Shown: positions 4,670 through 62,269, numbered from the stretch's first letter. The stretch is 64,000 bases of DNA from Candidatus Bathyarchaeota archaeon (GCA_963768425.1 CAVYHV010000006.1:1-64000); one strand, 5' to 3'. Notes: generated by a model from the sequence alone, not told the origin. Program-made: numbers and translations.

Positions 4670-6134
4670 ATGCGAAAGAAAAATAGAGTTGGGCGGAATT
4701 TTGTTGATAAATACCGCACTTACGTGGAAAACTCGCCTGTTGCTTTCTTCATTATTAATCCCGAAAGTAAATATGTCAAGGTAAATGATGCTGCTTGTAG
4801 ATTACTTGGTTATTCCAAAGAAGAACTTCTAGAAAAAACTGCCTCAAATCTTGTGTTTGAAGAGGATCTTACATTAGCGCGAAAACATCATTCAAAGTTA
4901 AAAGAAACTGGAAAGTCTGTTACAGAGTTTAGGCTAAAGAGAAAAGATGGGCAACCTGTACATGTTATTTTAAACGCAACACAATTACCAGATGGAAATT
5001 TAATGGCTTTCTGCGAAAACATAACTGAACGCAAGAAAGCTGAAGAAGCTCTTTGGGAAAGTGAGGTCAGATATGAGCAGCTTGTTGACAGGCTGCCTGA
5101 AATGGTTTTTGAAATCGACCTAACTGGGCATATTGCTTTTGCTAATATGAGGGCAGTTGAGCTTTTAGGTTATTCGAAGGATGAGCTTGAGGCTAATTTT
5201 GATGCTAATCGTCTTGTCGCTCCTGAGGATGTCTTGCGTTCAAGAGAAAATATGAGATTAATGTTTGCTAGAGGATTGCGCCAGAGTTATGAATACGTTT
5301 TTGTGAGAAAGAATGGAGAGCGTTTTCCTGTTTTATTGAATAGCGAGCCGATCATAAAAAACGACAAAATTGTTGGGGGTTAGGGGAATTGTGGTTGATA
5401 TAACTGAACGTAAGGATATGGAGAAGAGGCTTCAAGAACAAGAACGTTTGGCTGCTATAGGCACTACGGCAGGTATGGTTGGACATGATATTCGTAATCC
5501 CTTGCAAGCTATGACCGGCGATGTTTACTTAGCCAGGGCGGAATTAGTTCATACTCCTCAAAGTAAAGAGAGAAAAAATGCGTTAGAGAATTTGCAAGAG
5601 ATTGAAAAGAGCATTGATTATATCAACAAGATTGTCGCTGACCTCCAAGATTTTGCTAGAGCTATTTGCCCAGTCGGCAAGGAAACAGACTTAGTTCGCC
5701 TTTTCAAAGAAATTCTACTGAAAAGCAATTTACCAGACAGCATCAAGGTTTTTTGCAAAGTAGACAAAGATGCCAAACGTGCTTTTGTTGACCCAGAGTT
5801 GCTAAAACGAGTTTTAAGTAATTTGGTGCTAAACGCTGTTCAAGCCATGCCTGAGAGCGGAGAACTTTCCGTTAGTGCTTTCATCAAAGGTGAAGGCTTT
5901 GTTATTGAAGTTAAAGACACAGGTGTGGGAATACCTGAAGATGTTAAAGCTAAAATATTTACGCCTATGTTCACGACAAAATCCAAGGGTCAGGGACTCG
6001 GATTGGCAGTTGTGAAACGGTTAACTGAAGCGATGAATGGAACTGTGGCTTTTGAGAGTGAACAAGGTAAAGGAACCAAATTCATTGTACGCTTGCCAAA
6101 CAAGGAGCCAGATGGTAAATTGGTTCACAAGTAA
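4670..6134 (+). CDS. PAS-PAS sensor histidine kinase (frameshift in G-run near 5375)
   Basis: Two PAS domains, H-box GHDIRNPL, N-box NLVLNAVQA, DTGVGI, FTTK, GQGLGL. Confidence 0.92.
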
Positions 6135-23198: not shown

Positions 23199-27484
<4,286 letters not shown>

Positions 27485-27537: not shown

Positions 27538-27552
27538 TATAACATCGTTATA
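27538..27552. promoter_or_regulatory. Sulfur-regulon palindrome TATAAC-ATC-GTTATA (cysS / tRNA-Cys divergent promoter)
   Basis: Perfect inverted repeat; the motif recurs five more times before sulfur genes. Confidence 0.7.
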
Positions 27553-27622
27553 CTGTTGAAATAACAACCAAAAAACGGAGCCCTCAATATTTTTATGAGG
27601 GAAACCCGCAATAGAAATCTCT

Positions 27623-27695
27623 GCTGGGGTGGCCGAACGGCTCAGGCGACAGCCTGCAGAGCTGTTATATGTGGGTTCAATTCCCATCCCCAGCT
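27623..27695 (+). tRNA. tRNA-Cys(GCA) copy 1 (CCA not encoded)
   Basis: GCTGGGG/CCCCAGC acceptor, ACAGC-CTGCAGA-GCTGT anticodon arm, U73. Confidence 0.95.
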
Positions 27696-27985
27696 CTTTT
27701 TCCGAGCCCTCTGCTTTCACGGGATGATTTAACGGTTTAATTGCGTTTCTTCAAAAGCTTTGCGTCGCCAATAGCATAGACATGTTCGAATCCGTTTTCA
27801 ATCAACTGGGTTGTTTAAGATTGTTTGAGCTTGAATTCTCAGGTTGAAGGGTGGAGAAACCCGAATTATCATGTGTCATTCTGTTTAAACTGAAGTTAGA
27901 TAATATCGAGAAAGTAGTTGAGGAAGCGTTACAATAAAAAGATGTTAGATGAATTGTTTAAATAGAAATTTATTATATCTTGGGT

Positions 27986-28977
27986 ATGCAAAAAATTGGG
28001 CAATTCAAGACCGCCTGGAATTTTTTTAACTATCTGGATGACGAGACATTTTTTGGCGGCGGCTTGGATATAACCAACAGGTGCAACCTCCACTGCACAC
28101 ATTGCTATTGGGGACGCCAGAAAAAGAACCCCGGAACTGAACGATGAGCAAATGATAGTTTTTATGAAAAGCCTCCGCCGAGATGGATTAAGAATAATTT
28201 ATCTTCTGGGGGGAGAGCCCCTTCTCACGGCCAAAAATATGTGCAGAAGCCGGCAAGATTTTTGACTTTACTCTGATTTTTACAAATGGCACATTGGGAT
28301 ATCCCCCGGTGAACAACGCCAGATATGCCCTTTCTATTGATGGACCGGAGGAGATTCATGACAGCATCCGCGGAAAGGGAACATTTCAGAAGGTAACTGA
28401 GATACTGGATAAACAATCAACAAAGGTTATGATTCATGTTACCGTTTGTAAGTCGAACAAAGATCATTTGAAGGAAATAGTTGAAGACTTCATCTACCGG
28501 AAAAATGTCAGGGGAATATACTTTTGTTTCTTTTGTCCAAGCGTGAAACAGGATGGTAACAAGGAAAAGATTTCTTTGCAAGAAAGGGACAGGGTGATAG
28601 ATGAAATCGTCAATTTCCGCAAAAGGTATGGCAGCAAGATATTTTTTACGGAACGTGTTGGTCACTACATGAAAAGTGATGGCGGTATTGGATGCTGGAA
28701 CTCCCTTGAAAAGTGCATAACCAAGAAAGTGTTCAAGTTCTATGCTGCGGATGGAAAATACAAATACCACTGCGCCTATGGTGCAGAAGCGGAGTGTATG
28801 CATTGTGGCTGTAGCCAGGTTCCGTTAATGCATGCGTTGAGGGACAGAGATTTTGAGTCATGCGTGATGGTGTATCGTGATTATTGGGGGCTTCCTTATC
28901 ATAACGATTTTATTGTCAACTCTGTGCTAAAACTCAAAGCAGGGAAATCGAGGATTGGAGATGAACCGAAAGAGTAG
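27986..28977 (+). CDS. Radical SAM protein A (frameshifted)
   Basis: ITNRCNLHCTHCY, GGEP, SIDGPEEIHDSIRG and C-terminal C...CMHCGC. Confidence 0.85.
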
Positions 28978-29860
28978 ATGGTATTATTATCAGCGGGAAT
29001 TGAATTGGAAACTGCTTAGGGACAGGTCACCTATTGTTGCGGCAATTAAAATAACGCAAAGGTGCAATCTGCATTGCACGCACTGCACTTGGAGCAATAA
29101 GATAACCAAAGATTTGTCAGTGGCAGAATGGAAGGGTATCATTGACGATCTGTATGATAAAGGTGTGTCTGCCATGGCAATCGAGGGCGGCGAGCCAACT
29201 CTGTATAATGGAATAAAAGAGATTGTGGAATATATAAAATCAAAAAACATGTTTGTTATTTTCATAACAAACGGAACTCAGGATATTTCTGGAATATATC
29301 CTGATGTCTTTTGGATTTCCATAGACGGAATGGAAAAATCAGACAATAAGATCAGGGGTGCTGGTCACTTTGAAAAGGCAACAGAGACAATAAGGAAGAA
29401 CCGCGATAAGAAAATAATTGTCCTTTCAACTATATCAAAAACAAACTCGGATGATATTGAGGCTATGTGCAAATATTTTTCTGATTCAAGTCCCGTGTTT
29501 GGTTTGATGTTCAATTTTGAATACCAATATTGCGACATTGAGGATGTTGCGTTGGATGCCGAGCAAAGGGCGAAGGTTGCAGAGAATATAATTGGTTTGA
29601 AAAATAAATACCCGAAAGTTCTAAGTTCAGTGTCATATCTTCGGACAGTCGGCAAAAATAAGAAATGTTACCCGTGGCTTCTTGTTTCTGTGACGGCTGA
29701 CGGTAAACAGAGAAACGACTGCATGGTGAGGCATATAGAGGAAGATGATTGCTCGAAGTGTGATATGTGTTGTTATGGCGAGCTGTCGAGAATGTATGAG
29801 ATGAAATGGGATACTGCAATGTTTTGGTCGAAGAACGTGGGCCTTCCAAAACTAATATGA
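28961..29860 (+). CDS. Radical SAM protein B
   Basis: TQRCNLHCTHC, EGGEPT, ITNGT, SIDG and C-terminal C...C...CSKCDMCC. Confidence 0.9.
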   Translation: MNRKSRWYYYQRELNWKLLRDRSPIVAAIKITQRCNLHCTHCTWSNKITKDLSVAEWKGIIDDLYDKGVSAMAIEGGEPTLYNGIKEIVEYIKSKNMFVIFITNGTQDISGIYPDVFWISIDGMEKSDNKIRGAGHFEKATETIRKNRDKKIIVLSTISKTNSDDIEAMCKYFSDSSPVFGLMFNFEYQYCDIEDVALDAEQRAKVAENIIGLKNKYPKVLSSVSYLRTVGKNKKCYPWLLVSVTADGKQRNDCMVRHIEEDDCSKCDMCCYGELSRMYEMKWDTAMFWSKNVGLPKLI

Positions 29861-29862
29861 TC

Positions 29863-29995
29863 TGGCTGTTAGGTCATAAGAAGTTTGAGAACACTTCAGT
29901 CTATACTCGTCTTATATTTTTCAACTTTATTGATTATATTTTGTGAAATAGCTAAAAATTTGGAAGAAGCAACCGCACTTATTGACGCTAAATAG
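29863..29995 (+). pseudogene. Tyrosine recombinase/integrase C-terminal remnant
   Basis: Translates WLLGHKKFENTSVYTRLI (LGH...T..Y catalytic box II), then EIAKNLEEATALIDAK; no N-terminal part is present. Confidence 0.75.
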
Positions 29996-30374
29996 TTCTA
30001 GTGCACGTAGTCTCGACTAATCATAGTTTAACTGTTGCTTAGAAGGGTCATCACCAAAAGTGATAGTGCCTCTCTATAGTAACCATCAATCGTTTGGATG
30101 ATGGAAAATGGGATTGACAAGCTCCATGCTTTCAGTACTGCAAAAAAGTCGGCGTAACTGTAGGCTTGAAAACTGCGCTATTTTCTTAGGCATTGAACCC
30201 AAAGGCTTATGGAGGCATCAACATGCAACCAACCTCTGTAAACCATAAACGGGCAAAGGGAATCGAACCTCAATTCAAAAGCTCATAGCCAGCTCTTTTT
30301 TCGTAAAGAAATCTTTTCAACATTACTTTGAAGGACTAAAAAAAGGGAAGGATTTTTTATTTTGTGACTTTAGT

Positions 30375-33076
30375 TTACGGTTTTTTCTGAGCATTATCAT
30401 TGCGAGTGCGGCGATTCCCACGATTATTATCACGATTATTGCAATTCCTATGTACATGACGGCGTTTTGTGTTGCTACCCCGGTAAGTGGTGTTGCTGTG
30501 GGTGCTGCTGTTGCTGCGGGTGAGCTGGCGTAGAATCCTGTGGAGGCTGTGGATCCGTAGTATGATTGTGTGCCTGCAAATGTAGCGTATACTGTATAGT
30601 TGCCTGTGATGTCAGGTGTCCAGTAAATGAGTAGTCGCCTAAACCGTTTGTAGTTGTTGTGCCTATTGTTCGGTAGTTACCGTTGGAATCTATGACCGTA
30701 AATGTCACTGGAACCCCAGTTATATCGTGTGGCATTGGCTGCTGTTCGTAGACTGCTTCCATGAACGGTGTCATGCTTGCGTCGGATACGCATGGTAAGT
30801 CCGTTGGGGAAGTTTGCTGCGACTGCCTTTTGTGATGCGCCTGCGGAGATGTCCGTTACTGAGCCCGTTATGGTTATCGGAGTGGAAGTTGTAACGCCAA
30901 CATCTGGTGCGGTAATAGTGGTTTTGCTTGGTCCCATGCCGAAACCGTATATCTGATTGTCATAGTCATTAATCGTCGTCATTATACCGTCTGAAATTGC
31001 CGGGGCACTCGTAATGTCGAAACCCAATATGCTCCATACCAGTTTCCCATTAGTGCAGTTTACTGCGAGTTCACTAGATCCGCGGAATAGTGGGGGACTG
31101 TACATGTGCCCTTCTGGAACGAATAGCACTCCATCAGCGAGAGAGCCGCAGGTGAATGTCCATAGTGGCCATACTCCATAAGGAGTGTTGGACCCAGCGG
31201 GACCAGATAGTGTGTTAGTGTTTGTCTGCCATGCGATTGCTCCTGTTGCCATGTTGATGGCCCATATGTCGCCTCCGAAGCCCCACAAGTAAAGTACTCC
31301 ATTTGCAAGAACCGCTTGATAGCCGCCGATGCTGTCATAGGGATTAGCGTTGCCAAGGTTTGTTGTCCATAGATTCGTCCCTGTTGTCAAACTGTAACCA
31401 ACAAGTGTGGACGTCTCTTCGTTAACTACGGCGTAGGCTCCATCTCCAACTGCCGCAATAGATATCCTTGAGAACGGGGTTTCTGTCCTATTAGTTATCC
31501 ATATTTGTGCTCCCGTGTTTGCGTTGTAGCCTGCTTCAATTTGGAAGCCAGACTGGAAGAATTGTTCTCCCGTGTAGCCTGCATCAGTCATAAGTATGAC
31601 GCCGCTGTTGATTGACGAAATCGCCAAAGTTCCAGGTAAAGCCGAAGCCGATGGTAAAGCAACACCATTAAGAGATGTAGGTAGTGGCACTGTCCACATT
31701 AATCCAGCTGAGAATTGAATAGTGGATCCCAATACAGGCCTCCAAGACCAATTTTGGTAGCCTGGGGCTTGACCATTAGGGTACAGAATTGCTTGTGTCG
31801 AATTCCACATATTCAATGTTGGTGCACTTGGATTAGTAGCGTTGACATAGTAGCCAATCAGGTCTCCACTTTGATCTTCAATCATCGTCAGTGGTGCAAG
31901 TCCGGATGCGGCAGGCGCGTTGACAATGGTGAGTATAGGTTCTCCAGTCATGGCATCTAGCATTCCATACGTTGCTCCAGTGTTTGGGGGTATTGTAGGT
32001 TCTTGGACCCAGAGGTAAGATAAGCTTCCATACTGATTGGGAGACACATAATCGTAAATTTGACCGCATCTAAGTGTGGTTGTGTAAGGTACTGCGCCTG
32101 AAGTTGTTAAGCCTCCCGAGGTTTCAAGTAAACCCTGTTGCAGAAGTGGCACCGTGTAATTAAGACCAGTATCAGTCCATAATGTTTGTCCAGTCTGTAA
32201 GTTTACTGCGGTAATGCCTGCTGGATCTTGGTTAGAGTTCGGGTACTCTGTGTAGTAGAGAATTCCACTTATGATTACTGGTGCAAATTTCGGTTCATAT
32301 TGTGACGTCGAGTAGAAATTGCTAGTGTCGGATCCGCCGAATTCTCCTCCAACTAAGCCTCCGAAAGCCTCAGGCTTTGTCCAAAGGATGTGAGCGGTTG
32401 TTGGCGCTGTAGTGTAGGGGTTATAATTTCCGGTGATATTGTACTCTCCTGTGTTGGCAAAGGTTGATGTGCCTAAACCAAGCCAGTTTCCGCTAATAGT
32501 ATACCATTCGTCGTTCACTGATTCTATTGGGCGACTCCAGTAACTTGTCGGAAGTGGATTTTGGGGGATTGCTGCTACTGGAGTTTGTTGCACTACAAGG
32601 GTGTATGATAGGCTAGTGCTTGGTTCATAATAATCACCGATGAATGCCTTTGTTGCTGCAGTTGTGGTGGAAATCAGATTATTTCCTGCTAATGTCTGTC
32701 CCGGGAAGCTCATCTGGAAAGTGTAGTTACCGGTTTGAGTTGGTGTATAATCTGTATGGGTTCCTCCTGTATCATCAGCTGTAAACGTTCCAAGTTTAGA
32801 GGTGGTTCCATCAGGCAGCTTTACTGTTACTGACAAGCCGGTCCACCTGTCGCCGTAAACGCCGCTTGCTGTTGGTGTCGGTAAACCGAGCCAGAAGCCA
32901 ACGTTGACTGTTTGGCCAATTCCTGCAGGGTTAGGATTTACTTCAATGTAGGCGTATGTTGGAATCTGCCATGGTGGCGAATGCGCATTTGCGTTTGGTA
33001 TTAATAGCATTGAACCTGTCATAGAAAGTATAAAGAATATGCTAATTGCTATAGCTGCAATTTTGTTTTTCAACAT
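30375..33076 (-). CDS. Large secreted PQQ-like beta-propeller surface protein with TM anchor (frameshifts near 30790, 30620 and at the 3' end)
   Basis: Signal peptide; PNPAGIGQTV, PLPTSYWSRPI, HILWTKP, TG..LW repeats; paralog of 1-696. Confidence 0.85.
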
Positions 33077-33343
33077 TTTTCTTTTTTCTCCTAAATTTTT
33101 AGCGCTGAGAAGAAGCATAGAAACGCCTCTTCCCCGAGCTCGCACCATCTTTGCCCTTTTTGATATAAATAATTTGGCTAATTCACACGGCGCGATCTAG
33201 AGCGAATAAAGGCAATTTTCCATTTAGAAAGATAAAAAAATTAATGAAATACTGCGGTTTTACTTCAAAAAACGACCTTCACCAAACTAAATCTGATGAC
33301 TAAAGGAGAAGGGAAGTTGTGCAAGTGATTGTTCACATCAATA

Positions 33344-33370
33344 TGGGTTCAATTCCATTCCCCAGCTCCA
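33344..33370 (+). repeat. attR-like copy of the tRNA-Cys 3' end, retaining CCA
   Basis: tgggttcaattccattccccagctcca versus tgggttcaattcccatccccagctc at 27672-27696. Confidence 0.85.
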
Positions 33371-33390
33371 TATCCATAGAAACCGAAAGC

Positions 33391-33990
33391 TTAGCTTTTT
33401 CTGGAGAGCAAAAAGAAACCATATTCCCCAAACAGGTTCGGCAGAAAACGCACTTGTCTTTTGCCGGACTTGACGAAGGCGTTTTCAATGTGGATGTCTT
33501 TGTTCTTGCAGTAGTCCCTGAAGTCGTTTAAGCTGAGGAAATGCAGGTTCGGCGTGTTGTACCATTGATATGGGAGTGCTGCGGTGACGGGGACGCGTCC
33601 TTTGAAGAATATTTCGGCTCTGGCTTTGTAGTATGCGAAGTTGGGGATGCCAACTATGGTTTTTTTGCCTACCCGAAGCGCTTCTTGTAAGGCGAAATCG
33701 GGTTTTTTCACTTGCTGTAGAGTCTGGTTTAAGATGACGTAGTCGAAGGAATTGTCTTCATATTCGGAGAGTCCTGTATCGATATCCTGCTGGAAAACGC
33801 TTAACCCTTCGGCGACACATCGAACAATAGCCTGCTCGCTGAGTTCAATGCCTTGGGCACGCACATGTTTTTTCCGTATTAGGAACGAAAGGAGTTCTCC
33901 GTCTCCGCATCCGAGATCCAGCACTGATGCACCGTCAAAAATCCAGTCAGCGAAGGCTCTGTATTCAATTCTGTCAGCGAGCTGCGTCAT
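33391..33990 (-). CDS. metW: Methionine biosynthesis protein MetW
   Basis: [24 protein letters not shown]; directly downstream of metX. Confidence 0.93.
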
Positions 33991-35131
33991 TGTTGCTGCT
34001 CCTTGTATTGTTGTTGTAAACGCTCTTCAAGAAATTCCCAACTAATTGTGCCTCTTGCTCTGTTTCCAGAAGGAAGGCATCGTGACCATAAGTCGAGTTG
34101 AATTCACAGTAGCTTGCGTCAACGCCTGCCAGTTTGCAAGCCTTCACTATCTCCTGTGACTGGTATGATGGGTAGAGCCAATCCGACTTAAATGCGAGAA
34201 CAAGCACTTTTGTTTGCAACCCTCTGAAGATGTCTCCGAGGTTGTGCCCGTTTAAGATGTTGAAGTAATCTATGGCTTTGGTTATGTACAGGTAGCTGTT
34301 TGCATCAAATCTCTTGACAAAGTTGTCGCCTCGGTAGCGAAGGTAACCTTCAACCTCGAAATCCACGCCGAACTTGAACGCAGCTTTCTCTTCCTTGAAT
34401 TTTCGACCGAACTTTTCAGCCATTGAAGCATCGCTCATGTAGGTTATGTGTCCAATCATTCTTGCTATGGCTAACCCTTTAGCAGGAATGCTGCAGCCGT
34501 AGTAGTTGCCATCTCGCCAGTCGGGATCAGCCATGACCGCTTGCCTGCCAACCTCGTTGAAAGCGATCTGCTGAGGCGTATGCTTCATCGTCGTCGCAAT
34601 AGGTATTGCGGCTCGAATCCTTTGGGGGTAAGAAACCATCCACTGCAAAACCTGCATACCGCCCATGGAGCCCCCGATTACAGCTAAAAGCTTCTCTATT
34701 CCTAAGTGGTCAATGAGGTGACGCTGCGCATTAACCATGTCTTTGATAGTTATCAGTGGGAAATCGATACCGTAGGGTTTACCCGTTTTATGGTTTATTG
34801 AAGATGGTCCAGTGGAACCCCTGCAGCCGCCTAGAATATTGCTGCAGATCACAAAGTACTTGTTAGTGTCGACACCCATGCCTTCACCGATAAGATTGTT
34901 CCACCAACCGCCGGATCCGGTGACATGGGCATCACCGCTGAGCGCGTGCAAAACGAGGATGGCGTTGGATTTATCTTTGTTGAGTGTGCCGAAAGTTTCG
35001 TACGTGAGTGTTATTGGACCAAGGGTCTCGCCTGATTCAAGAATAAGCTCTGCTGGGGGTTGTGCAAAAGTGAAGGTTTGGGTTTGTGAATTTTCCAGTT
35101 TGCTTATCCTTGTGAACTTGTTTGCCTCCAA
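33974..35131 (-). CDS. metX: Homoserine O-acetyltransferase
   Basis: Motifs HALSGD, GSTGPSS, GGSMGG, RFDANSY, GHDAFL. Confidence 0.95.
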
Positions 35132-35150
35132 AAATTAGGGGGAATGCAGC

Positions 35151-35165
35151 TATAACGCTGCTATA
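35151..35165. promoter_or_regulatory. Sulfur-regulon palindrome TATAAC-GCT-GCTATA before metX
   Basis: One mismatch to ATAAC-N3-GTTAT. Confidence 0.55.
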
Positions 35166-35168
35166 GAT

Positions 35169-36473
35169 TTAAGGTTTCGCCGATGCTTTCAATGCTTTAT
35201 CCAAATCTTCGATGATGTCCTCTGGGTCTTCGATGCCTACAGATAACCTGATGTAATCCTCCGTGACTCCTGTTGCCTCCTGTTCTGCCTTGGTTAGTTG
35301 CTGGTGGGTTGTAGATGCCGGGTGAACGATTAGGCTCTTTGTGTCGCCGATGTTTGCCAAGTGCGAAAGAAGCTTCACTGACTCGATGAGTTTGCGTGCT
35401 GAATCTTTGCCGCCTTTGATTCCAAAGCCAACCAGACCGCCATAGTTGCCTTTGAGGTATTTTTCCGCGATCTTGTGGTTTGGATTGTCAGTCAAGCCCG
35501 GATAGATGACCCAACTTACAAGCGGATGCTGCTTTAGGAATTGTGCGACTTTTAAGGCGTTTTCGGAGTGTTTGCGTTGTCTGAGTGGCAGTGTTTCTAT
35601 GCCTTGCAGGAAAAGCCAGGAGTTGAATGGGCTCAATGCGGGACCTAAATCTCTTAGCAGTTGGAGGCGTACTTTGAAGATGAAGGCTACGTTTCCTAAG
35701 CTTGGGAAGTTGCTGAATTTATCCCAATATTTGATGCCGTGGTAGCTAGGGTCTGGTTCGGTGAACTCTGGGAATTTGCCGTTGTTCCAGTTGAATTTGC
35801 CGCCGTCAACGATTATGCCGCCTAAGCTGGTTCCATGTCCACCGATGTACTTGGTTGCTGATGCTACGATTATGTCGGCTCCGTATTCGAGGGGTCTGAC
35901 AATCCCTATGCCTACCGTGTTGTCGACCACGAGAGGTATGCCTGCATCATGCGCTATTTTAGAGAGGGCTTCAAAGTCGGGAACATCAAGTTTTGGGTTG
36001 CCTATTGTTTCAGCGTAGATCGCCCGGGTCTTGGAAGTTATGGCTTTCTTGAACTCTTCCGGTTTTTGGGAATCAACGAACTTCACAGATCTACCTAGTT
36101 TTGGAAAAGTGTAGTGGAAAAGCTGGTACGTTCCGCCGTAAAGGTTGTTTGCCGAGACGATTTCATCCCCGACGCGGGTTATCGCTAGTAGCGCTAAGGT
36201 TTCAGCTGCTTGTCCAGAGGCTACTGCCAACGCGCCCGTGCCGCCTTCAATGGCTGCTACGCGTCTTTCGAAGACATCGGTTGTCGGATTCATCAATCTG
36301 GTATATATGTTCCCCAGCTCTTTTAGGGCGAAAAGATTCGCCGCATGATCGGTATTTTTAAAGACATATGAAGTCGTCTGGTAGATCGGAACGGCCCTTG
36401 ACCCTGTTGTTGGGTCAGGTATTTCTTGACCAGAGTGGACTGCTACTGTGTCTAATCTTCTTTTTGAGGTCAT
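35169..36473 (-). CDS. metY: O-acetylhomoserine/O-acetylserine sulfhydrylase
   Basis: Motifs [41 protein letters not shown]. Confidence 0.95.
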
Positions 36474-36523
36474 TCTTTAATTGCTCCTTTGAATTTTTTA
36501 TTTTTGATTAACAACAACATCTA

Positions 36524-36536
36524 ATAACGCCGTTAT
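36524..36536. promoter_or_regulatory. Sulfur-regulon palindrome ATAAC-GCC-GTTAT before metY
   Basis: Perfect motif about 50 nt upstream of the metY start. Confidence 0.7.
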
Positions 36537-36683
36537 ATGCCTTCTTGCAAGAAATATTCCAACAAGAATATGTCTCAATCAAACATCAACCCACCTCCAT
36601 CATTAGAGATGATTCCCCTAAAACCACAGCCACAATAGTTTGCGTCGGAGTGCAAAGGTTTTTTAGTGGTGGCTCACACAAAA

Positions 36684-36698
36684 AATAACGCTGTTATT
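36684..36698. promoter_or_regulatory. Sulfur-regulon palindrome AATAAC-GCT-GTTATT before the ThiI-like gene
   Basis: Perfect motif overlapping TATA-like TTATATG. Confidence 0.7.
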
Positions 36699-36720
36699 AT
36701 ATGCTCTTGGGGATAAATAA

Positions 36721-37698
36721 GTGAAAGCATTAGGCATGTTATCAGGCGGTTTAGACAGCACCTTAGCAGTGAAACTTATCCAAGAGCAGGGAATAGATGT
36801 TGAAGCCATCAACTTCGTAACACCGTTTTGCCAATGCAGAAAAGGCGGATGTGGCGCTGCAGAAGCCGCAAAAACCTTCAACATACCCCTCAAAATGGTC
36901 AACGCAGGCACAGATTATTTACGCATGGTCAGAAAGCCAAGGTTCGGATATGGAAAAAACCTCAACCCCTGCGTAGACTGCAGAATATACATGCTAAAAA
37001 AGGCAAAACACTTCGCAAAACAAATCGGAGCAAAATTCATCTTCACCGGTGAAGTCCTTGGGCAACGCCCCATGTCACAGCATAAAGCAGCCCTCGATCT
37101 TATAGAACGAGAAGCAGGTTTGCAAGGAAAAATTCTTCGTCCACTGTCGGCTAAGCTTTTACCAAAAACGGAAGCAGAGACAAAAGGACTTGTTGAAGAA
37201 GAAGCGCTCAGAGACATAAGTGGGCGTTCAAGGAAACGTCAAATTGAAATGACCAAAGAATTTAACATCGTTAATTACCCTTGCGCGGCAGGTGGATGCC
37301 TCCTCACCGACAGACAATTTGCCAAAAGACTTCGAGACCTTTTCGAGCACAAAAAGAGAATAACCATCAAACAAGTTAATCTGCTCAAAGTGGGCCGACA
37401 CTTTCGGTTCGGGAAAAACAAGATTATTGTAGGAAGATCCGAAGCTGAAAACGGACTGTTGCTTAGAACTAAACAAAAAACCGATTATTTCTTTGAAGTG
37501 CCCGATTGTGGAAGCCCAATTACTATTCTTCAAGGACCAAAAACACGAGCTACGATAGAGAAAGCTGCAGCTTTAACCGTTTTTCACTCGGACAAAAAGA
37601 CGGGAGCAGTTCCAGTAAATTTCGGAAAAAATAAGCCCGACAGGAAAATAGTTATCTCAGCACCGCTTCAGGCAGAAGTTGATTTGCTTAGGATTTAA
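36721..37698 (+). CDS. ThiI/MnmA-like PP-loop tRNA sulfurtransferase with C-terminal NFACT-R/DUF814-like domain
   Basis: Motifs SGGLDS, NPCVDCR, TGEVLGQRPMSQ, GGCLLTD, GRHFR. Confidence 0.8.
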   Translation: MKALGMLSGGLDSTLAVKLIQEQGIDVEAINFVTPFCQCRKGGCGAAEAAKTFNIPLKMVNAGTDYLRMVRKPRFGYGKNLNPCVDCRIYMLKKAKHFAKQIGAKFIFTGEVLGQRPMSQHKAALDLIEREAGLQGKILRPLSAKLLPKTEAETKGLVEEEALRDISGRSRKRQIEMTKEFNIVNYPCAAGGCLLTDRQFAKRLRDLFEHKKRITIKQVNLLKVGRHFRFGKNKIIVGRSEAENGLLLRTKQKTDYFFEVPDCGSPITILQGPKTRATIEKAAALTVFHSDKKTGAVPVNFGKNKPDRKIVISAPLQAEVDLLRI

Positions 37699-37790
37699 GC
37701 CGACGCTGTTCTTTTCTCTTATTTAGGCGAAAAGACTAATCGTTTTGTGTTCGAAAAAACGATGCGCCAAAAAGAAAATACAAAAAACGG

Positions 37791-38147
37791 TTAAATGTAG
37801 TATTCAGGTTTGGAAGATTCAGAGATCAGTTTTTCTTTTTTACAGAAAGTGACGCAGAGAGTGCAAAAACCAGGCGTAATATCTTCAGCGGTAATCTCTT
37901 TATTGATTAGCTTTCTGGCAGTTTCGTGCGCCATCGTTTGTAGTTTTGGCATGAACGCCTCAACATGCTCTATGCCTTTGTAAGCACGTTTGGAACTAAG
38001 GTATTGGCTAACGGCGGCTTGTGTGGTTCCGAGTTTTCTGGCTGCTTCAGTTTGGGAAAGATTGTATTTTTGTACGAGTTCCTTAGCTAACATTGATCTG
38101 AAAATAGGCAGAACGTATTTGCCGACCATTTCACATTGAGGGTCCAT
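37791..38147 (-). CDS. Small HTH transcriptional regulator with Cys motifs
   Basis: PQCE...SQTEAARKLGTTQAAVSQYLSSKRA...FCTLCVTFC. Confidence 0.85.
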   Translation of the reverse strand: MDPQCEMVGKYVLPIFRSMLAKELVQKYNLSQTEAARKLGTTQAAVSQYLSSKRAYKGIEHVEAFMPKLQTMAHETARKLINKEITAEDITPGFCTLCVTFCKKEKLISESSKPEYYI

Positions 38148-38161
38148 TACAATCGTATCAT

Positions 38162-38176
38162 TATAACGCACTTATA
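38162..38176. promoter_or_regulatory. Sulfur-regulon palindrome TATAAC-GCA-CTTATA before the HTH regulator
   Basis: One mismatch; abuts TATA-like CTTATAAG. Confidence 0.55.
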
Positions 38177-38214
38177 CTTATAAGTCGTTTCAAATCAATC
38201 AACCTCTTCAGAGA

Positions 38215-38304
38215 CTATAAGGCTTGTTCTAAATCCGCATGTAAATCTTCGTAATCTTCAATTCCAAAGGATAGCCTGAGCAAATTATCCGTAACACCCA
38301 TCTG
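38215..38304 (-). pseudogene. C-terminal remnant of a Cys/Met-metabolism PLP enzyme (MetB/MetC-like)
   Basis: Minus strand reads QMGVTDNLLRLSFGIEDYEDLHADLEQAL*; the rest of the gene is absent. Confidence 0.75.
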
Positions 38305-38405
38305 GCAAAAAACCGGAATAAACAGAACATAATTATCACGCGGTACACAGGCGTGCCTTATTTCAAAAAGAATATAGCATCGTCAAGACTCAATTATAAA
38401 ACAAG

Positions 38406-38960
38406 ATGTTCCCAGAACTAGAAGACATTGCCAAACGCCGTAAACTACTGGGCCTTAAACAATCAGATTTAGCCAAAGCAGCGGGCGTAAGCCAATCCCT
38501 AATCGCCAAACTGGAAGCAGGAACAATAGACTCATCCTACACCAAAGTAAAAGCAATCTTCGACGTGCTCGAACGCTTAGAATTCAAGACCAAAGTCCAA
38601 GCTGAAAAAATCCTCCACACCGAAGTCGTCAGCGTCCAAAAGAGTGAGCCGGTTTCAGAAGTTGTAAAAATCATGAAAGAACACGGTTATTCACAGATAC
38701 CCGTCTTCGATGGGAAACAGCCTGTGGGAAGCATTTCGGAAAAGGCGATTCTGCGGCAGATTTTGGCTGGAAAAGACTTGGAGGAAATCTCTAAGCTGCC
38801 GACAGAAAGGATTATGGAGGAAGCTTTCCCGCAAATCAATGAGGATGCGCCGTTATCTTTGATTACTAGTCTTTTGCAGAATTATTCAGCGGTTTTAGTG
38901 TCAAAAAAAGGCGTGATACTGGGCATTATTACGAAGGCGGATTTGCTGCGGATGCTTTGA
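38406..38960 (+). CDS. XRE-HTH + CBS-pair transcriptional regulator
   Basis: GLKQSDLAKAAGVSQSLIAKLE; CBS motifs YSQIPV and GIITKADLL. Confidence 0.9.
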   Translation: MFPELEDIAKRRKLLGLKQSDLAKAAGVSQSLIAKLEAGTIDSSYTKVKAIFDVLERLEFKTKVQAEKILHTEVVSVQKSEPVSEVVKIMKEHGYSQIPVFDGKQPVGSISEKAILRQILAGKDLEEISKLPTERIMEEAFPQINEDAPLSLITSLLQNYSAVLVSKKGVILGIITKADLLRML

Positions 38961-39071
38961 CGCAAGACGGTTATTTTTAAGTATGAGGATTTCTTCTGAA
39001 TTGGTTACAAAGTGCTTTTATTAATGAGCTGAAGCGCGCCAAAAAAGCTTTAAGCGTCGCCGTTAAACTTT

Positions 39072-39084
39072 ATAACAGTGTTAT
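39072..39084. promoter_or_regulatory. Sulfur-regulon palindrome ATAAC-AGT-GTTAT before cysK
   Basis: Perfect motif overlapping TATA-like TTTATAA, 16 nt before the start codon. Confidence 0.7.
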
Positions 39085-39099
39085 GTGGCAGTGATTTAA

Positions 39100-40050
39100 T
39101 TGAAAATAAACAATAACGTATTAGAAACAATAGGCAAAACACCGCTAGTTCGCCTGAACCGATTAACCGAAGGCATAAACGCCATTGTCGTCGGCAAAAT
39201 AGAATCAAGAAACCCAGGAGGAAGCGTCAAAGACCGCATATGCCTAAGCATGATTATTGAAGCAGAGAAACAGGGCTTAATCAAACTAGGCACAACCATC
39301 ATTGAACCGACAAGCGGCAACACAGGAATTGGCTTAGCCATGGTAGCAGCCGTAAAAGGCTACAAACTAATCCTTACCATGCCAGAAACCATGAGCATCG
39401 AAAGACGCAGTCTACTCAAGGCCTACGGCGCACAACTCGTCCTCACACCAGGGCCAGAAGGCATGGGCGGCGCCATCAAAAAAGCTGAGGAAATAGCTGC
39501 GCAAACGCCCAACAGTTTCGTGCCGCAGCAATTCAAGAATATAGCCAACCCAAAAATCCACCGCGAAACCACAGGCCCAGAAATATGGGAAGACACTGAT
39601 GGCAAAGTAGACATTCTGGTTTCGGGTGTAGGCACTGGAGGAACAATAACCGGAGTGGCACAATACATAAAACCACTAAAACCCGCCTTCAAAGCAGTAG
39701 CTGTAGAACCCGCAGCTTCGCCAGTTTTGAGCGGGGGACAGAAGGGACCGCACAAAATTCAAGGGATAGGTGCTGGCTTCAAACCCGACGTGTTAAAACT
39801 TGATTTGGTAGATGAAATATTCAAAGTGACTGACGATGACGCTATCAAGACGGCGAGGCAACTGGCACAAAAAGAAGGCTTGCTTGTAGGCATATCCTCA
39901 GGTGCAGCAACGTATGCGGCGCTTGAAGTCGCGAAGCGAGCAGAAAACAAAGACAAACTCATCGTTGTGATTCTGCCAGATACAGGCGAACGTTACCTCA
40001 GCACGATCTTATTCCAAGAACCAGCAGAGCAGATTCCGACTGCTTTATAA
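39100..40050 (+). CDS. cysK: Cysteine synthase A (O-acetylserine sulfhydrylase)
   Basis: Motifs [40 protein letters not shown]. Confidence 0.96.
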
Positions 40051-40085
40051 TATCCTTTTTTTATATTTGCAAGCAGGAAAGAAAA

Positions 40086-41135
40086 ATGGTAACAAAAACC
40101 GAAAGGTCACAGCCCAAAGAAGCAGAGCAAGCAACCTGCAAAAAAGAAGAAGGCACATGGAGTCCAGAGAGCGCTCTTAATGCGCTTCTGAGTAACCATT
40201 ACAAAGTGGAGAAGGACTGGGTTGAGAAAGGCTTGCCAAAACTAGTGGATGAAATGGTGGCTAATTATGAGAAGTTTGGCGGTATGGACCACCTTACTGG
40301 GCGAGATCTTCCTTCGCAAGAAGTAGTTGTGGAAGTATTGGAAGACTTGTTAACTATTCTTTTTCCCGGATACTTAGGGAAGGAAGAAATCACCAAAGCT
40401 AACATAAAGTACTATCTTGGCACCAAGCTGAATTCAGTCTACATTCGCCTTACGAGCGAAGTTGAAAAAAGTTTGAAGTATATTTGCCGGAAAGCTGGGA
40501 CATGCCCCCAAGACATATGCCAATCACGTGCGCAAATTGTCGTTAAAGAGCTTCTTGAAAAGCTTCCTGAAATAAGATCTATGCTAAGCGGTGACATTCA
40601 AGGCGCCTATGAAGGTGACCCGGCAGCCGTGAGCACCGATGAAGTGATTTTGAGTTACCCGTGTGTGCTTGCAATTACAACTTACAGGATAGCACATGTG
40701 CTTTACCTCGACAGTGTACCCTTGATCCCCAGAATAATGAGTGAGCACGTTCACTCCCTAACAGGTATAGATATTCATCCAGGAGCAAGAATAGGCAAAA
40801 ACTTCTTCATCGACCATGGCACAGGCGTCGTCATCGGCGAAACCACTGAAATCGGGGACAACGTTAAACTTTACCAGGGTGTAACCTTGGGTGCGCTGAG
40901 TTTTGCCAAAGACGAGGAGGGTAACATCATCAAAGGAAGAAAACGGCACCCAACGATCGGAAACAACGTGATTATCTATTCGGGAGCGACAATCCTTGGG
41001 CGAAACGCTGTGGTCGGTGACGACGTTGTCATAGGTGGAAACGTGTGGGTAACTTCACCAATTGCCCCGGGAACCAAGATAACCATTACACCCCCTGAGC
41101 AGAATTACAAGAAAGAAAAACGCGTTGGAACCTGA
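40086..41135 (+). CDS. cysE: Serine O-acetyltransferase (long N-terminal, EpsC-type)
   Basis: Motifs [39 protein letters not shown]. Confidence 0.93.
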
Positions 41136-41292: not shown

Positions 41293-41368
41293 GCCTAGGT
41301 GGCCGAGTCGCATAAGCAATCGCCTGCAGAGCGATTTTACAGGGGTTCAATTCCCCTCCTAGGCTCCA
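41293..41368 (+). tRNA. tRNA-Cys(GCA) copy 2 with atypical D-arm
   Basis: GCCTAGG/CCTAGGC-T-CCA acceptor, ATCGC-CTGCAGA-GCGAT anticodon arm, AGGGG-TTCAATT-CCCCT; TATA-like CTTATATAA upstream. Confidence 0.85.
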
Positions 41369-60031: not shown

Positions 60032-62012
60032 TTAGAACCTTTTTGCTATAAACCCCGCATTTTCTGGGCTACTTTCATTTTCTATCTTTCTTGCTAACGC
60101 CAAATTCAGCTGGGAAATGGTGTCACGCAGTTCAATAGCTTTCTCGAAATCAAGTTTTTCAGCGGCTTCCCTCATTTTCGCGTCTAATTCGATTATTTGA
60201 CGTTGAATGTCTGACTTGGGAAGGTGCTTTGTGCCCTTGATTGTGCTTTCCTTATGGGAAACGCTCTTAATGATCGTGGTGGGTGTGATGTTGTGGATTT
60301 GGTTGTAGCGTTTCTGGAATGCGCGGCGGTAATTGGTAATTTTCAAAGCTCTTTTAATCGAGTTTGTTTCGACGTCTGCGTACAGGATTACTCTGCCGTT
60401 CACGTTTCTTGCAGCTCGTCCAATGGTTTGGATAAGGCTGCGTTCATCTCGCAGGAACCCTTCTTTATCAGCGTCCAAAATGAAGATGGTTGCCACTTCT
60501 GGGATATCTAAGCCTTCCCGCAGCAGGTTGATTCCAACCAAAATGTCAAAATCGCCAACGCGAAGCTGCCGCACAAGCTCTATGCGGTCTAAGCTGTCGA
60601 TGTCGGAGTGCATGTAGCGTACGCGAAAGCCCTCTTTGACAAGGTAATCAGCCAAGTCTTCGGCCATCCGTTTGGTGAGGGTTGTGATTAGGATTCGGTC
60701 GCCGCGCTCTATGGTTTTCTTTGCTTCAGCCATCAGATGCTGCATCTGACCCGCGATGGGGTGAACTTCCACTTCTGGGTCAAGAAGCCCTGTTGGTCGA
60801 GTGATTAATTCGACGGGTTTGCCGCTTTTTTCCAATTCGTACTCGGCTGGGGTTGCTGAGACGAAGAGGACTTTACCCATTTTTCCTTCGAACTCGTCAA
60901 ACTTTAGTGGTCTATTGTCTAGGGCGCTGGGTAGTCGGAAGCCGAAGTCGACGAGGTTCTTTTTTCTTGCGTAGTCGCCATTGTACATGGCTCGGGACTG
61001 CGGGATTGTTTGGTGGCTTTCGTCGATTATTAGCAGATAGTCTTTTGGGAAATAATCCATCAAGGTGAAAGGCGGTTCGCCTGGTTTGCGTCCGTCGAAG
61101 TGTCGGCTGTAGTTTTCCATTCCTGCGCAGAACCCGATTTCCCGAATCATCTCCAAATCGTAGTTTGTGCGTTGCTTAAGCCTCTGAGCCTCCAGCGGCG
61201 GCAGGTCGGGAAGCCTCTTCTCCAGTTCCTGCTTGATGTGTCTCAAGTGCAAGTGCATGTTTCTCTTCGGGAACAACGTATTGGCGGGCAGGGTAAAGCG
61301 TCAATCTGTCTACTGCAACTTTGACGTCGCCTGTTATATGGTGGACTTCTTTGAGTTTCGCGATTTTGTTTCCGTCCAATTCAATCCGCAAAATATCGTT
61401 CTCGTAAGACGGCACAATATCGATGGTGTTGCCTCTCACGCGGAATCTTCCGGGCTCAAGAACCATATCGTTGCGTTCATATTGCATTTCAACCAGCTCG
61501 CGGATAAGGTCTTGCCTTGCGATTTGTTTCCCAACCGCCAGATCCAGTGCCATGGTTCGGAAGTCCTCTGGGTTTCCAAGGCTGTAAATGCAGCTAATGC
61601 TAGCGACAATTATGGTGTCGTTTCGGCTTACCAGGCTGGAGACGGCGTGCATACGCATCTTCTCGATTTCTTCGTTCACGTCGGAGTCTTTTTCAATGTA
61701 CATGTCCTGAGCTGGCAAATACGATTCAGGCTGGTAAAAATCGTAAAACGAAATGAAGAATTCAACTCGGTTGTGGGGGAAAAGCTCTCGTAGTTCACCG
61801 TAAAGCTGCGCAGCCAAAATCTTGTTGTGCGCAATGATTAGTGTTGGCTTTTGCAGGCGGTTGATTACGTTTGCCATGATGAAGGTTTTGCCGCTGCCTG
61901 TGATGCCGAGAAGGGTTTGTTTCTCTTTTTTGGCGAAGTTGGCGGCTAGCTTTTCGACGGCTTCAGCCTGTCCAGGCGACATTTTGTATGGTGCGATAAG
62001 TTCAAACTGCAC
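60032..62012 (-). CDS. uvrB: Excinuclease ABC subunit B (frameshift near 61255)
   Basis: Motifs [38 protein letters not shown]. Confidence 0.96.
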
Positions 62013-62269
62013 TTTAGCTTCTCCAACACCCTTCTAAGAAATGACCCAACCGTTTGAACTAATAAGGTTTTTTCTATGAGAGTGCAACGTTGTACATGAC
62101 ACGTGTCATGAAAGCTTAGAGAGAGGTTTGCTAGCACGAAACACTTATTGTTTAAGTGGAATTCCGTTAACTCCCAAAAGAACAACTGTTCTAAGAATAA
62201 TTTAATCAAACTCACATTGGCAGCCATCACAGAAAAATGCGACAGAATAGCTGCGTTAAGTGAGTTACT

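Follow-up and report, generated by a model that had tools for sequence, protein, structure and literature searches.

The 64,000-nucleotide stretch of DNA analysed here (hereafter, the window; Candidatus Bathyarchaeota archaeon, GCA_963768425.1, CAVYHV010000006.1:1-64000) carries a cluster of cysteine and methionine genes in which a short palindrome, ATAAC-N3-GTTAT, recurs upstream of several members (Table 1). The cluster comprises the metY-metX-metW and cysK-cysE operons, cysS beside a tRNA-Cys gene, a gene for a PP-loop ATPase, and the genes of two regulators: HTHcys, a small helix-turn-helix (HTH) protein with conserved cysteines, and HTH-CBS, in which an HTH is followed by two CBS domains. 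These identities had been proposed in an earlier note made from the bare sequence, and they agree with domain and tRNA matches. In the same note, the palindrome was read as the operator of a new archaeal sulfur regulon, with one of the two HTH proteins as its repressor. The results presented below support the operator, identify HTHcys as its probable reader and autoregulated repressor, and suggest that HTH-CBS is a second regulator acting through a palindrome of its own.

Table 1. Genes and candidate regulatory sites of the sulfur cluster in the window.
Feature	Position	Strand	Context	Reading
cysS, split across three frames	26060..27484	-		Regulon member in this genome only
Candidate P1 operator, perfect, spacer ATC	27539..27551		Between cysS ATG 27484 (-) and tRNA-Cys 27623 (+)	Overlaps TATA-like TTTATAA
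tRNA-Cys(GCA)	27623..27696	+	Next to cysS, P1 upstream
metY-metX-metW operon	33391..36473	-		O-acetylhomoserine sulfhydrylase, homoserine O-acetyltransferase, MetW
One-mismatch P1-like site	35152..35164		Between metY stop and metX start	Possible weak internal operator
Candidate P1 operator, perfect	36524..36536		50 nt upstream of metY ATG 36473 (-)
P2 palindrome, ATATTCC-N4-GAATAT type	36554..36571		metY promoter, 33 nt upstream of P1	Putative HTH-CBS operator
Candidate P1 operator, perfect	36685..36697		23 nt upstream of PP-loop/NFACT-R_2 GTG start
PP-loop ATPase (ThiI / tRNA_Me_trans HUP domain), C-terminal NFACT-R_2	36721..37698	+		Predicted thiolation enzyme
HTHcys, 118-aa XRE-type HTH protein, Cys5/Cys95/Cys98	37791..38147	-		Putative P1-binding autoregulated repressor
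Weak one-mismatch P1	38163..38175		15 nt upstream of HTHcys ATG, directly 3' of TATA-like box	Putative autoregulatory site
P2 palindrome	38358..38375		Upstream of HTH-CBS gene	Putative HTH-CBS autoregulatory site
HTH-CBS, HTH_3 and two CBS domains	38406..38960	+		Second regulator, putative reader of P2, not P1
Candidate P1 operator, perfect	39072..39084		15 nt upstream of cysK start	Overlaps TATA-like TTTATAA
cysK-cysE operon	39100..41135	+		Cysteine synthase A, serine O-acetyltransferase
tRNA-Cys(GCA)	41293..41368		Just after cysE

The pattern ATAACNNNGTTAT occurs perfectly four times in the window (starts at 27539, 36524, 36685, and 39072) versus 0.04 expected, and none of 100 shuffles of the window gave four perfect copies. 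All four had been listed before, as had the one-mismatch copies at 35152 and 38163. With up to one mismatch, nine copies were found versus 1.39 expected, which adds three unlisted ones at 4801, 28901, and 38678, the last two lying within open reading frames (ORFs). The statement that no perfect copy lies outside the cluster held for the window but not for the genome (2,958,400 bases in 33 contigs, 44% G+C), where three more bring the total to seven. One of these (C22:102093; contigs, genomes, and loci bear our labels C, G, and L) stands 48 nt 5' of an operon encoding DsrE, a cysteine desulfurase in two pieces, and NifU_N, and the other two are inside long ORFs. Genome-wide, the loose motif was not enriched over a reversed, non-complemented control (7 versus 8), and the bare count therefore gives no signal; it is clustering, promoter position, and a constrained spacer that distinguish the real sites. 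In 134 of 144 distinct perfect sites, taken from loci fetched by protein similarity only, the spacer reads purine-N-pyrimidine (R-N-Y), for which chance would give 25%. The operator is therefore best described as a 6-1-6 palindrome, ATAACR-N-YGTTAT, which we named P1. A T before and an A after the palindrome are preferred (T-ATAACR-N-YGTTAT-A, in a set that includes loci chosen with the refined pattern). Exactly four perfect sites of the refined pattern ATAACRNYGTTAT exist in the 2.96-Mb genome, and all of them are the window promoter sites. Because the loose motif is unenriched and the one-mismatch P1 matches are mostly intragenic (27 of 36 genome-wide, on a crude ORF map with 81% coding), no genome-wide enrichment is claimed for mismatched sites. 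A search of six loci with orphan P1 sites against Rfam returned no family.

Since P1 resembles and partly overlaps TATA-like sequence, and the loose motif does not exceed its reversed control, it could be argued that P1 is an element of the promoter, or an A+T-rich palindrome that arose by chance, and not the site of a regulator. We find this explanation hardly credible, given that the four perfect copies are clustered, that the palindromic constraint reaches into the spacer, and that the genes downstream form a restricted and functionally coherent set across families. In the earlier note, an equal frequency of the motif before unrelated genes was named as grounds for refutation. In 20 neighbourhoods of ~20 kb around HTHcys orthologs, a P1-like site within 70 nt upstream is carried by just 37 of the 316 crude ORFs with 100 or more amino acids, and by gene position nearly all of the 37 are HTHcys, metY, cysK, PP-loop, or other sulfur or iron genes. 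In the same neighbourhoods, a perfect P1 precedes metY in all 13 loci that hold it, and P1 precedes cysK in all five that hold this gene, as it also does in G001, G008, and G009. When orthologous metY promoters were compared, P1 with at most one mismatch was upstream of the gene in 19 of 19 (18 perfect, and one with a single mismatch in G008). These comparisons support P1 as a real and conserved operator of a sulfur (Cys/Met) regulon, much as had been proposed.

Which protein reads P1 is best approached through the promoter of HTHcys itself. Among 24 HTHcys orthologs (one truncated locus was dropped), P1 with at most one mismatch lies at -27 to -32 in 23, and the 24th has two mismatches. P1 was likewise found before HTHcys in 27 of 29 loci sampled across the class (the upstream region of one of the other two is masked, and that of the second is degenerate) and, at -25 to -32, in 78 of 80 named species genomes; the 29-locus sample shares four genomes with the 24-locus sample, and the 80-genome sample also overlaps. 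Apart from a few evidently mislabelled bins, the close homologs and all 80 of these loci come from genomes labelled Bathyarchaeia or Bathyarchaeota, including Candidatus Bathycorpusculum. Within the genus, the self-site is a constant weak variant in which the fifth base of the promoter-distal half-site is altered (ATAAG in 60, ATAAT in 11, and ATAAA in 7); in other families of the class it is perfect. It directly follows a TATA-like box.

The occurrence of P1 also follows that of HTHcys among 201 genomes of the class, which were sorted by profile match (strong, E <= 1e-30; absent, no match at 1e-15). The 65 genomes with a strong match hold 247 P1 versus 67 reversed-control sites, with 51 genomes above control and 3 below. 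In the 59 that lack a match, 41 P1 and 29 control sites were counted (11 above, 11 below). Counts for the intermediate 77 were 73 and 27. As genomes of one class are related, such numbers overstate independence, and the tracking is used here as supporting evidence and not as a test statistic. G007 and G217 have no P1 and no ortholog-level HTHcys match. In G006, which has no match to the HTHcys profile, the four P1 sites examined are in ORFs or between convergent genes. It is quite unlikely, in our estimation, that some unlinked transcription factor reads P1 and HTHcys is merely a member of the regulon. A regulon commonly counts regulators among its members, and P1 persists in three genomes in which no intact HTHcys was found (see below), as such a factor would allow. 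However, the HTHcys self-site stays in place throughout the class, including where the remaining targets are all different, the P1 excess tracks HTHcys, a paralogue of HTHcys shows the same pattern of a palindrome before its own gene, and no other regulator was consistently linked in the 20 neighbourhoods.

The second regulator, HTH-CBS, appears to have an operator of its own. A palindrome named P2 (consensus ATATTCCAAAAAGAATAT, ATATTCC-N4-GGAATAT-like) is located at -41 to -46 before HTH-CBS in 19 of 21 loci. P2 is also found upstream of metY in 19 of 19 promoters, 32-34 nt upstream of P1 (33 nt in 18 of the 19), even where HTH-CBS is not adjacent. Where HTH-CBS does not adjoin metY (in the genome of the window and in G005, G007, G014, G015, and G040), P2 is upstream and P1 is absent, and ATAAC-N3-GTTAT occurs near HTH-CBS orthologs only where the gene is divergent to metY. 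The simplest reading would be that of two regulators with two operators, in which HTHcys and P1 serve the sulfur regulon, and HTH-CBS and P2 serve HTH-CBS itself and metYXW. Because P2 precedes both HTH-CBS and metY, metYXW is probably under dual control. HTH_3+CBS proteins, with homologs in every family sampled, resemble HTHcys in that their HTH is of the XRE type, that a palindrome precedes the gene of each, and that one of them is coupled to metY in the genus; they differ in their putative operator, P2, and in carrying a CBS pair as a likely ligand sensor. As a guess, the CBS pair hints at an adenosyl ligand such as S-adenosylmethionine (SAM). No characterised member of this group was found in the literature, searched at the level of titles and abstract openings.

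Both HTH proteins had been put forward in the earlier note as candidates for the regulator. Of these, the Cys-bearing protein stands as the best candidate by its self-sites, and the candidacy of HTH-CBS is not borne out, P2 being the palindrome before its gene. HTH-CBS as the reader of P1, sensing SAM or another adenosyl ligand through its CBS pair, has several facts on its side: (i) in most members of the genus, HTH-CBS and metY are divergently oriented and P1 lies in the intergenic region that they share; (ii) HTH-CBS and metY are each present in 18 of 24 genus genomes, the two sets differing in 2; (iii) G008, G009, and G024 have P1 and HTH-CBS without an intact HTHcys; and (iv) distant homologs are preceded by the ATAAC and GTTAT half-sites at a spacing of N5. 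Nevertheless, we judge it very unlikely. Away from metY, HTH-CBS has P2 and no P1 upstream, almost all HTHcys genes examined have P1 upstream, and P1 regulons exist in families whose single HTH-CBS homolog shows 35-40% identity and has another palindrome. In G004, metY lacks P1 and HTH-CBS was not detected, which fits a coupling of HTH-CBS and P2 with metY and not with the wider regulon.

That HTHcys (37791-38147) is the P1-reading, autoregulated repressor of the sulfur regulon, with HTH-CBS and P2 as a second regulator and its operator, is the account that we consider probable from these comparisons of sequence. Several observations nonetheless weigh against it, in addition to the flat genome-wide count of the loose motif and the relatedness of the genomes used for phyletic tracking. 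Perfect P1 is found at metY in G024 (93% complete) and at metY and cysK in G009 (56% complete), and in G008 (100% complete), P1 precedes cysK and, with one mismatch, metY, although no intact HTHcys was found in any of the three. Each holds only the HTHcys paralogue. The assemblies of G024 and G009 are fragmented, and in G008, a decayed HTHcys remnant (C13:~109310-109700, L243) with stops and an internal gap, whose end is still ortholog-like, suggests that the gene was lost recently. Such loss, or gaps in the assemblies, can explain P1 without HTHcys in these genomes, but another binder could do so too. Conversely, G004 (71% complete) has HTHcys but no site within 1.5 kb of metY, with no HTH-CBS detected, and G033 has an HTHcys ortholog but no perfect R-N-Y site genome-wide. 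Among homologs of HTH-CBS at 35-40% identity from other families, ATAAC-N5-GTTAT stands right before the start in 8 of 10 distant loci (L085-L092), and the remaining two (L083 and L084) have an ATTACT...AGTAAT palindrome instead. As the half-sites of the former are those of P1 at another spacing, some cross-talk between the two regulators is possible. Finally, start codons and calls of 'intergenic' rest on a crude ORF map, and the repressor role of HTHcys is deduced from the position of the operator relative to TATA-like boxes and start codons only.

The six targets named in the earlier note fared differently when relatives were compared. Two of them, the sites at cysS and at the PP-loop gene, are not conserved. 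At cysS, no site with at most one mismatch was found at any of five orthologous loci (within 1.5 kb) or at any of three paralogue loci. A site with similar flanks in G014 was considered as the ortholog of the cysS/tRNA-Cys site and rejected, the alignment being unconvincing. The PP-loop site is kept in the close relative G020 (L035), and of five other relatives, only one has a plausible copy, with one mismatch (G012, 11 nt upstream). Of the metY loci scanned in relatives, that of G020 (L042) alone repeats the one-mismatch metY-metX site, at an unchanged position. By this comparison, the cysS/tRNA-Cys and PP-loop sites are lineage-specific. In the genome of the window, the predicted regulon most likely consists of metYXW, cysKE, the PP-loop thiolation gene, cysS/tRNA-Cys, and HTHcys, to which the DsrE-IscS-IscU operon probably belongs.

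In relatives, the scope is wider than had been proposed and takes in Fe-S (iron-sulfur) assembly, sulfur relay, sulfite reductase, and iron uptake. In G020, 14 P1 sites lie on a single contig of 36.6 kb (C90). They precede DsrE-TusA-cysteine desulfurase genes, metYXW/HTH-CBS, a sulfite reductase (NIR_SIR), TusA/PALP, genes of an NMT1-type binding protein and an ABC transporter, an AsnC-type gene, Liv-type permeases, EamA with a Liv-type binding protein, a BcrAD/HGD-D operon, and two further genes. Two targets stand out as odd in this 'sulfur island', namely the BcrAD/HGD-D operon, which is 2-hydroxyacyl-CoA dehydratase-like, and a B3_4-domain gene. In G040, from another family, P1 was found before TusA-IscS-IscU, DsrE/thioredoxin-like, metY, cysK-cysE, and HTHcys genes. 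In G038, P1 separates sulfite reductase from IscS-NifU and ThiF-JAB from ThiS, and it also precedes Thi4 and FTR1; G026 has it before DtxR-FeoA-FeoB. The HTHcys gene of G025 and G027 is followed, in an operon, by a ThiF or THUMP-ThiI gene. P1 was further found at a 2x[4Fe-4S] ferredoxin gene in G001 and G012 and at a radical SAM gene in G016. G180 has 25 P1 sites versus 0 in the control, and 14 of 16 examined are intergenic on the crude map. One of its sites lies 22 nt before HcyBio+CBS, a non-orthologous alternative homocysteine enzyme. The shared theme of these predicted targets is the provision of reduced sulfur and its delivery to Cys and homocysteine, to Fe-S clusters, and to thiolated cofactors or tRNA, with iron uptake added in two families. 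G180 also has P1 before genes for a BlaI/Penicillinase_R-type regulator, an FtsX/MacB permease, a flavin reductase, a lipocalin-like protein, and several unknown proteins.

The position of P1 relative to the core promoter suggests how HTHcys could act. The archaeal TATA box lies ~26 nt before the transcript start, and repressors sit at or near such positions. The gap between P1 and the start codon is 15 nt at both cysK and HTHcys and 23 nt at the PP-loop gene, and at these genes P1 abuts or overlaps TATA-like sequence; at metY, it is 39-63 nt from the start codon. With P1 over a TATA-like box or between the box and the start codon, HTHcys should repress by blocking the TATA-binding protein (TBP), transcription factor B (TFB), or the polymerase, and the repression proposed in the earlier note fits sites that lie over or just 3' of such boxes. 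In the mechanism that we propose, HTHcys would bind P1, most likely as a dimer, and block recruitment of TBP/TFB or RNA polymerase. It would repress its own gene through a deliberately weaker operator, and a shortage of sulfur or Fe-S would release it, so that the targets would be derepressed. Beside it, HTH-CBS would act through P2 on its own gene and on metYXW. Some archaeal regulators act as both activator and repressor, and the distance of P1 from the start codon of metY leaves its relation to the core promoter there uncertain, as would suit an HTHcys that binds P1 as an activator or dual regulator rather than as a pure repressor. At cysK, the PP-loop gene, and HTHcys, however, P1 is too close to the start codon and the TATA-like sequence to suit this idea well, and we consider it unlikely.

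HTHcys belongs to the XRE/Cro-C1 type of HTH proteins, as residues 30-62 match Pfam HTH_3 (PF01381) with 27.0 bits (cut-off, 23; E, 4.6e-6), and most close homologs carry precomputed PF01381/PF09048 labels. Its orthologs are 102-132 amino acids long. In an alignment of 20 of them, Cys5, Cys95, and Cys98 are invariant (PxCE ... FCxLC); a fourth Cys is present in only part of the genus, and other families have an extra CxxH ... CxxC tail. An AlphaFold (AF2) model has six helices with a predicted local distance difference test (pLDDT) value of 77. A Foldseek search of the PDB with this model had no hit at E <= 0.001, the best VIA-align wide score (Z, 6.2) is within the stated noise for helical models, and the best PDB sequence profile has an E of 0.005. 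Thus, no solved structure resembling HTHcys beyond the HTH was found, and structure searches do not inform on the C-terminal Cys region. In the Protein Atlas, a homologue falls only into unnamed 'transcriptional regulator' clusters, and these lead to Methanobacteriota and Thermoplasmatota.

A profile search of 1.84 billion cluster representatives with HTHcys returned 1852 clusters at E <= 0.001, among them proteins of 313-323 amino acids in which the whole HTHcys module is fused to ThiN (PF10120). The 20-ortholog profile matches residues 1-110 of two such fusions, P0185 and P0256, whose ThiN domains are recognised with E values of 7e-49 and 1e-51. In hhalign, HTHcys and the HTH+ThiN module are aligned over 110 columns with a probability of 99.7%, an E of 3e-26, and 33% identity, including the Cys residues of PxCE and CxxC. 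HTHcys itself (118 amino acids) gave no match to ThiN. By these profile comparisons, HTHcys is a stand-alone form of the DNA-binding module of the HTH+ThiN fusions.

The genome of the window also encodes a paralogue of HTHcys (C8:75658-76059, 133 amino acids) with the same Cys motif. Its own promoter (C8:76093-76125) has a tandem ATGAC-N4-GTCAT, and the paralogue promoters of G007, G008, G009, G024, and G040 have the same or a near-identical palindrome. ATGAC-N4-GTCAT also lies 84 nt before uvrB-uvrA in the window (62096-62109), upstream of a second, intein-bearing uvrB-like gene on C20 (C20:1942), and at C23:60775. We regard the paralogue as a candidate regulator of DNA repair. As the paralogue and HTHcys each have a palindrome of their own, both subfamilies seen carry a self-palindrome upstream. 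The Cys motif is kept in the ThiN fusions and in the uvrBA-linked paralogue; it is therefore a feature of the family and may be a structural metal site. We accordingly think it unlikely, if far from negligible, that HTHcys senses sulfur or Fe-S through this motif, as the earlier note had suggested.

A bolder proposal, which we hold to be possible but doubtful, is that HTHcys is the first described archaeal master regulator of sulfur and Fe-S homeostasis and senses sulfur directly, either through an Fe-S cluster ligated by the three Cys residues or by accepting a persulfide. The persulfide donors could then be the ThiI and ThiF proteins, with which it is co-transcribed in some lineages, and perhaps the neighbouring PP-loop protein, and loss of the cluster or sulfur would free P1 and turn on the genes for Cys, homocysteine, IscSU, sulfite reductase, and iron uptake.

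Three known systems invite comparison. The archaeal thiamine regulator ThiR, reportedly described by Rodionov and co-workers in 2017, is said to have been found by comparative genomics and to use palindromic, lineage-specific operators; its architecture is presumably the HTH+ThiN arrangement of the fusion relatives. The 110-residue HTHcys module is homologous to the N-terminal part of the HTH+ThiN fusions, but unlike ThiR, HTHcys has no ThiN ligand domain, and its predicted regulon covers Cys, Met, Fe-S, and sulfur relay rather than thiamine, the sole overlap being Thi4 in G038. IscR and CymR are bacterial regulators of the Rrf2 family that control Fe-S assembly and cysteine metabolism. HTHcys resembles them as a proposed small, dimeric, and autoregulated repressor of a regulon with cysteine supply, IscS-IscU, and, in some lineages, iron uptake, and its three conserved Cys residues could, putatively, hold a cluster. 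It differs from them in its XRE-type HTH without Rrf2 (no match to an Rrf2 domain was found in Pfam or NCBIfam), in its operator, and in that its Cys motif is common to relatives of other function. SurR of the Thermococcales, an ArsR-type winged-helix protein with a CxxC motif, binds GTT-N3-AAC and switches hydrogenase and S0-reduction genes. With SurR, HTHcys would share the role of an archaeal, sulfur-linked regulator, a short N3-spaced palindrome, and a CxxC motif. Unlike in SurR, the half-sites of P1 are in the opposite order (ATAAC-N3-GTTAT), the fold is HTH_3 (HTHcys matched no Pfam ArsR family, and no ArsR-type fold was among the fold-search matches listed), and the predicted targets are those of Cys, Met, and Fe-S biosynthesis.

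In titles and abstract openings of the literature, no archaeal transcription factor or operator for Cys, Met, or Fe-S biosynthesis was found, nor was the stand-alone module, and the work on ThiR may bear on this. ThiR is mentioned in PMC10746257. The logic of operator and repressor proposed here is an ordinary one; what appears to be new is the operator, the stand-alone branch of the ThiR-type module, and a regulon undescribed in Archaea.

Some further features of the window and the genome deserve mention. On either side of the Cys/Met cluster is a tRNA-Cys(GCA) gene; the two differ, with 84% identity. Frame changes split cysS, a radical SAM gene (28000-28977), and uvrB (60032-62012) and, outside the window, iscS (C22:100094-101279) and a gene for an EF-2-like GTPase (C6:105510-107619). 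In five relatives, cysS is intact (frames of 473-486 amino acids), and the split genes are probably assembly indel errors rather than pseudogenes. An 823-amino-acid PQQ_2/beta-propeller protein is encoded at 30677-33148, between the end of cysS and the met operon. A homolog is also found beside the met operon in G014, and in G001, P1 lies ~60 nt upstream of another homolog (L231). Sequencing runs gave matches at the contig level only, with small shares. In a peat RNA library, two contigs at least 99% alike fall within metY (35888-36101) and cysK (39355-39544); this match is at the contig level and shows neither transcription nor transcript starts.

Taken across the class, the analysis defines an operator, a candidate protein, and a coherent regulon in abundant uncultured archaea of sediment and peat. 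The P1 regulon may serve as a handle for the sulfur and iron status of Bathyarchaeia in metatranscriptomes, and unannotated genes that bear P1 are flagged by it as candidates for sulfur metabolism. Two small proteins and short duplexes of DNA would do for an in vitro test of the prediction. The prediction would extend the ThiR-type DNA-binding module to new regulons, and should direct sensing prove true, the HTH-Cys family (linked to sulfur, to thiamine with ThiN, and to uvrBA) would represent a group of archaeal regulators that have in common a single DNA-binding module sensitive to redox state or metal.

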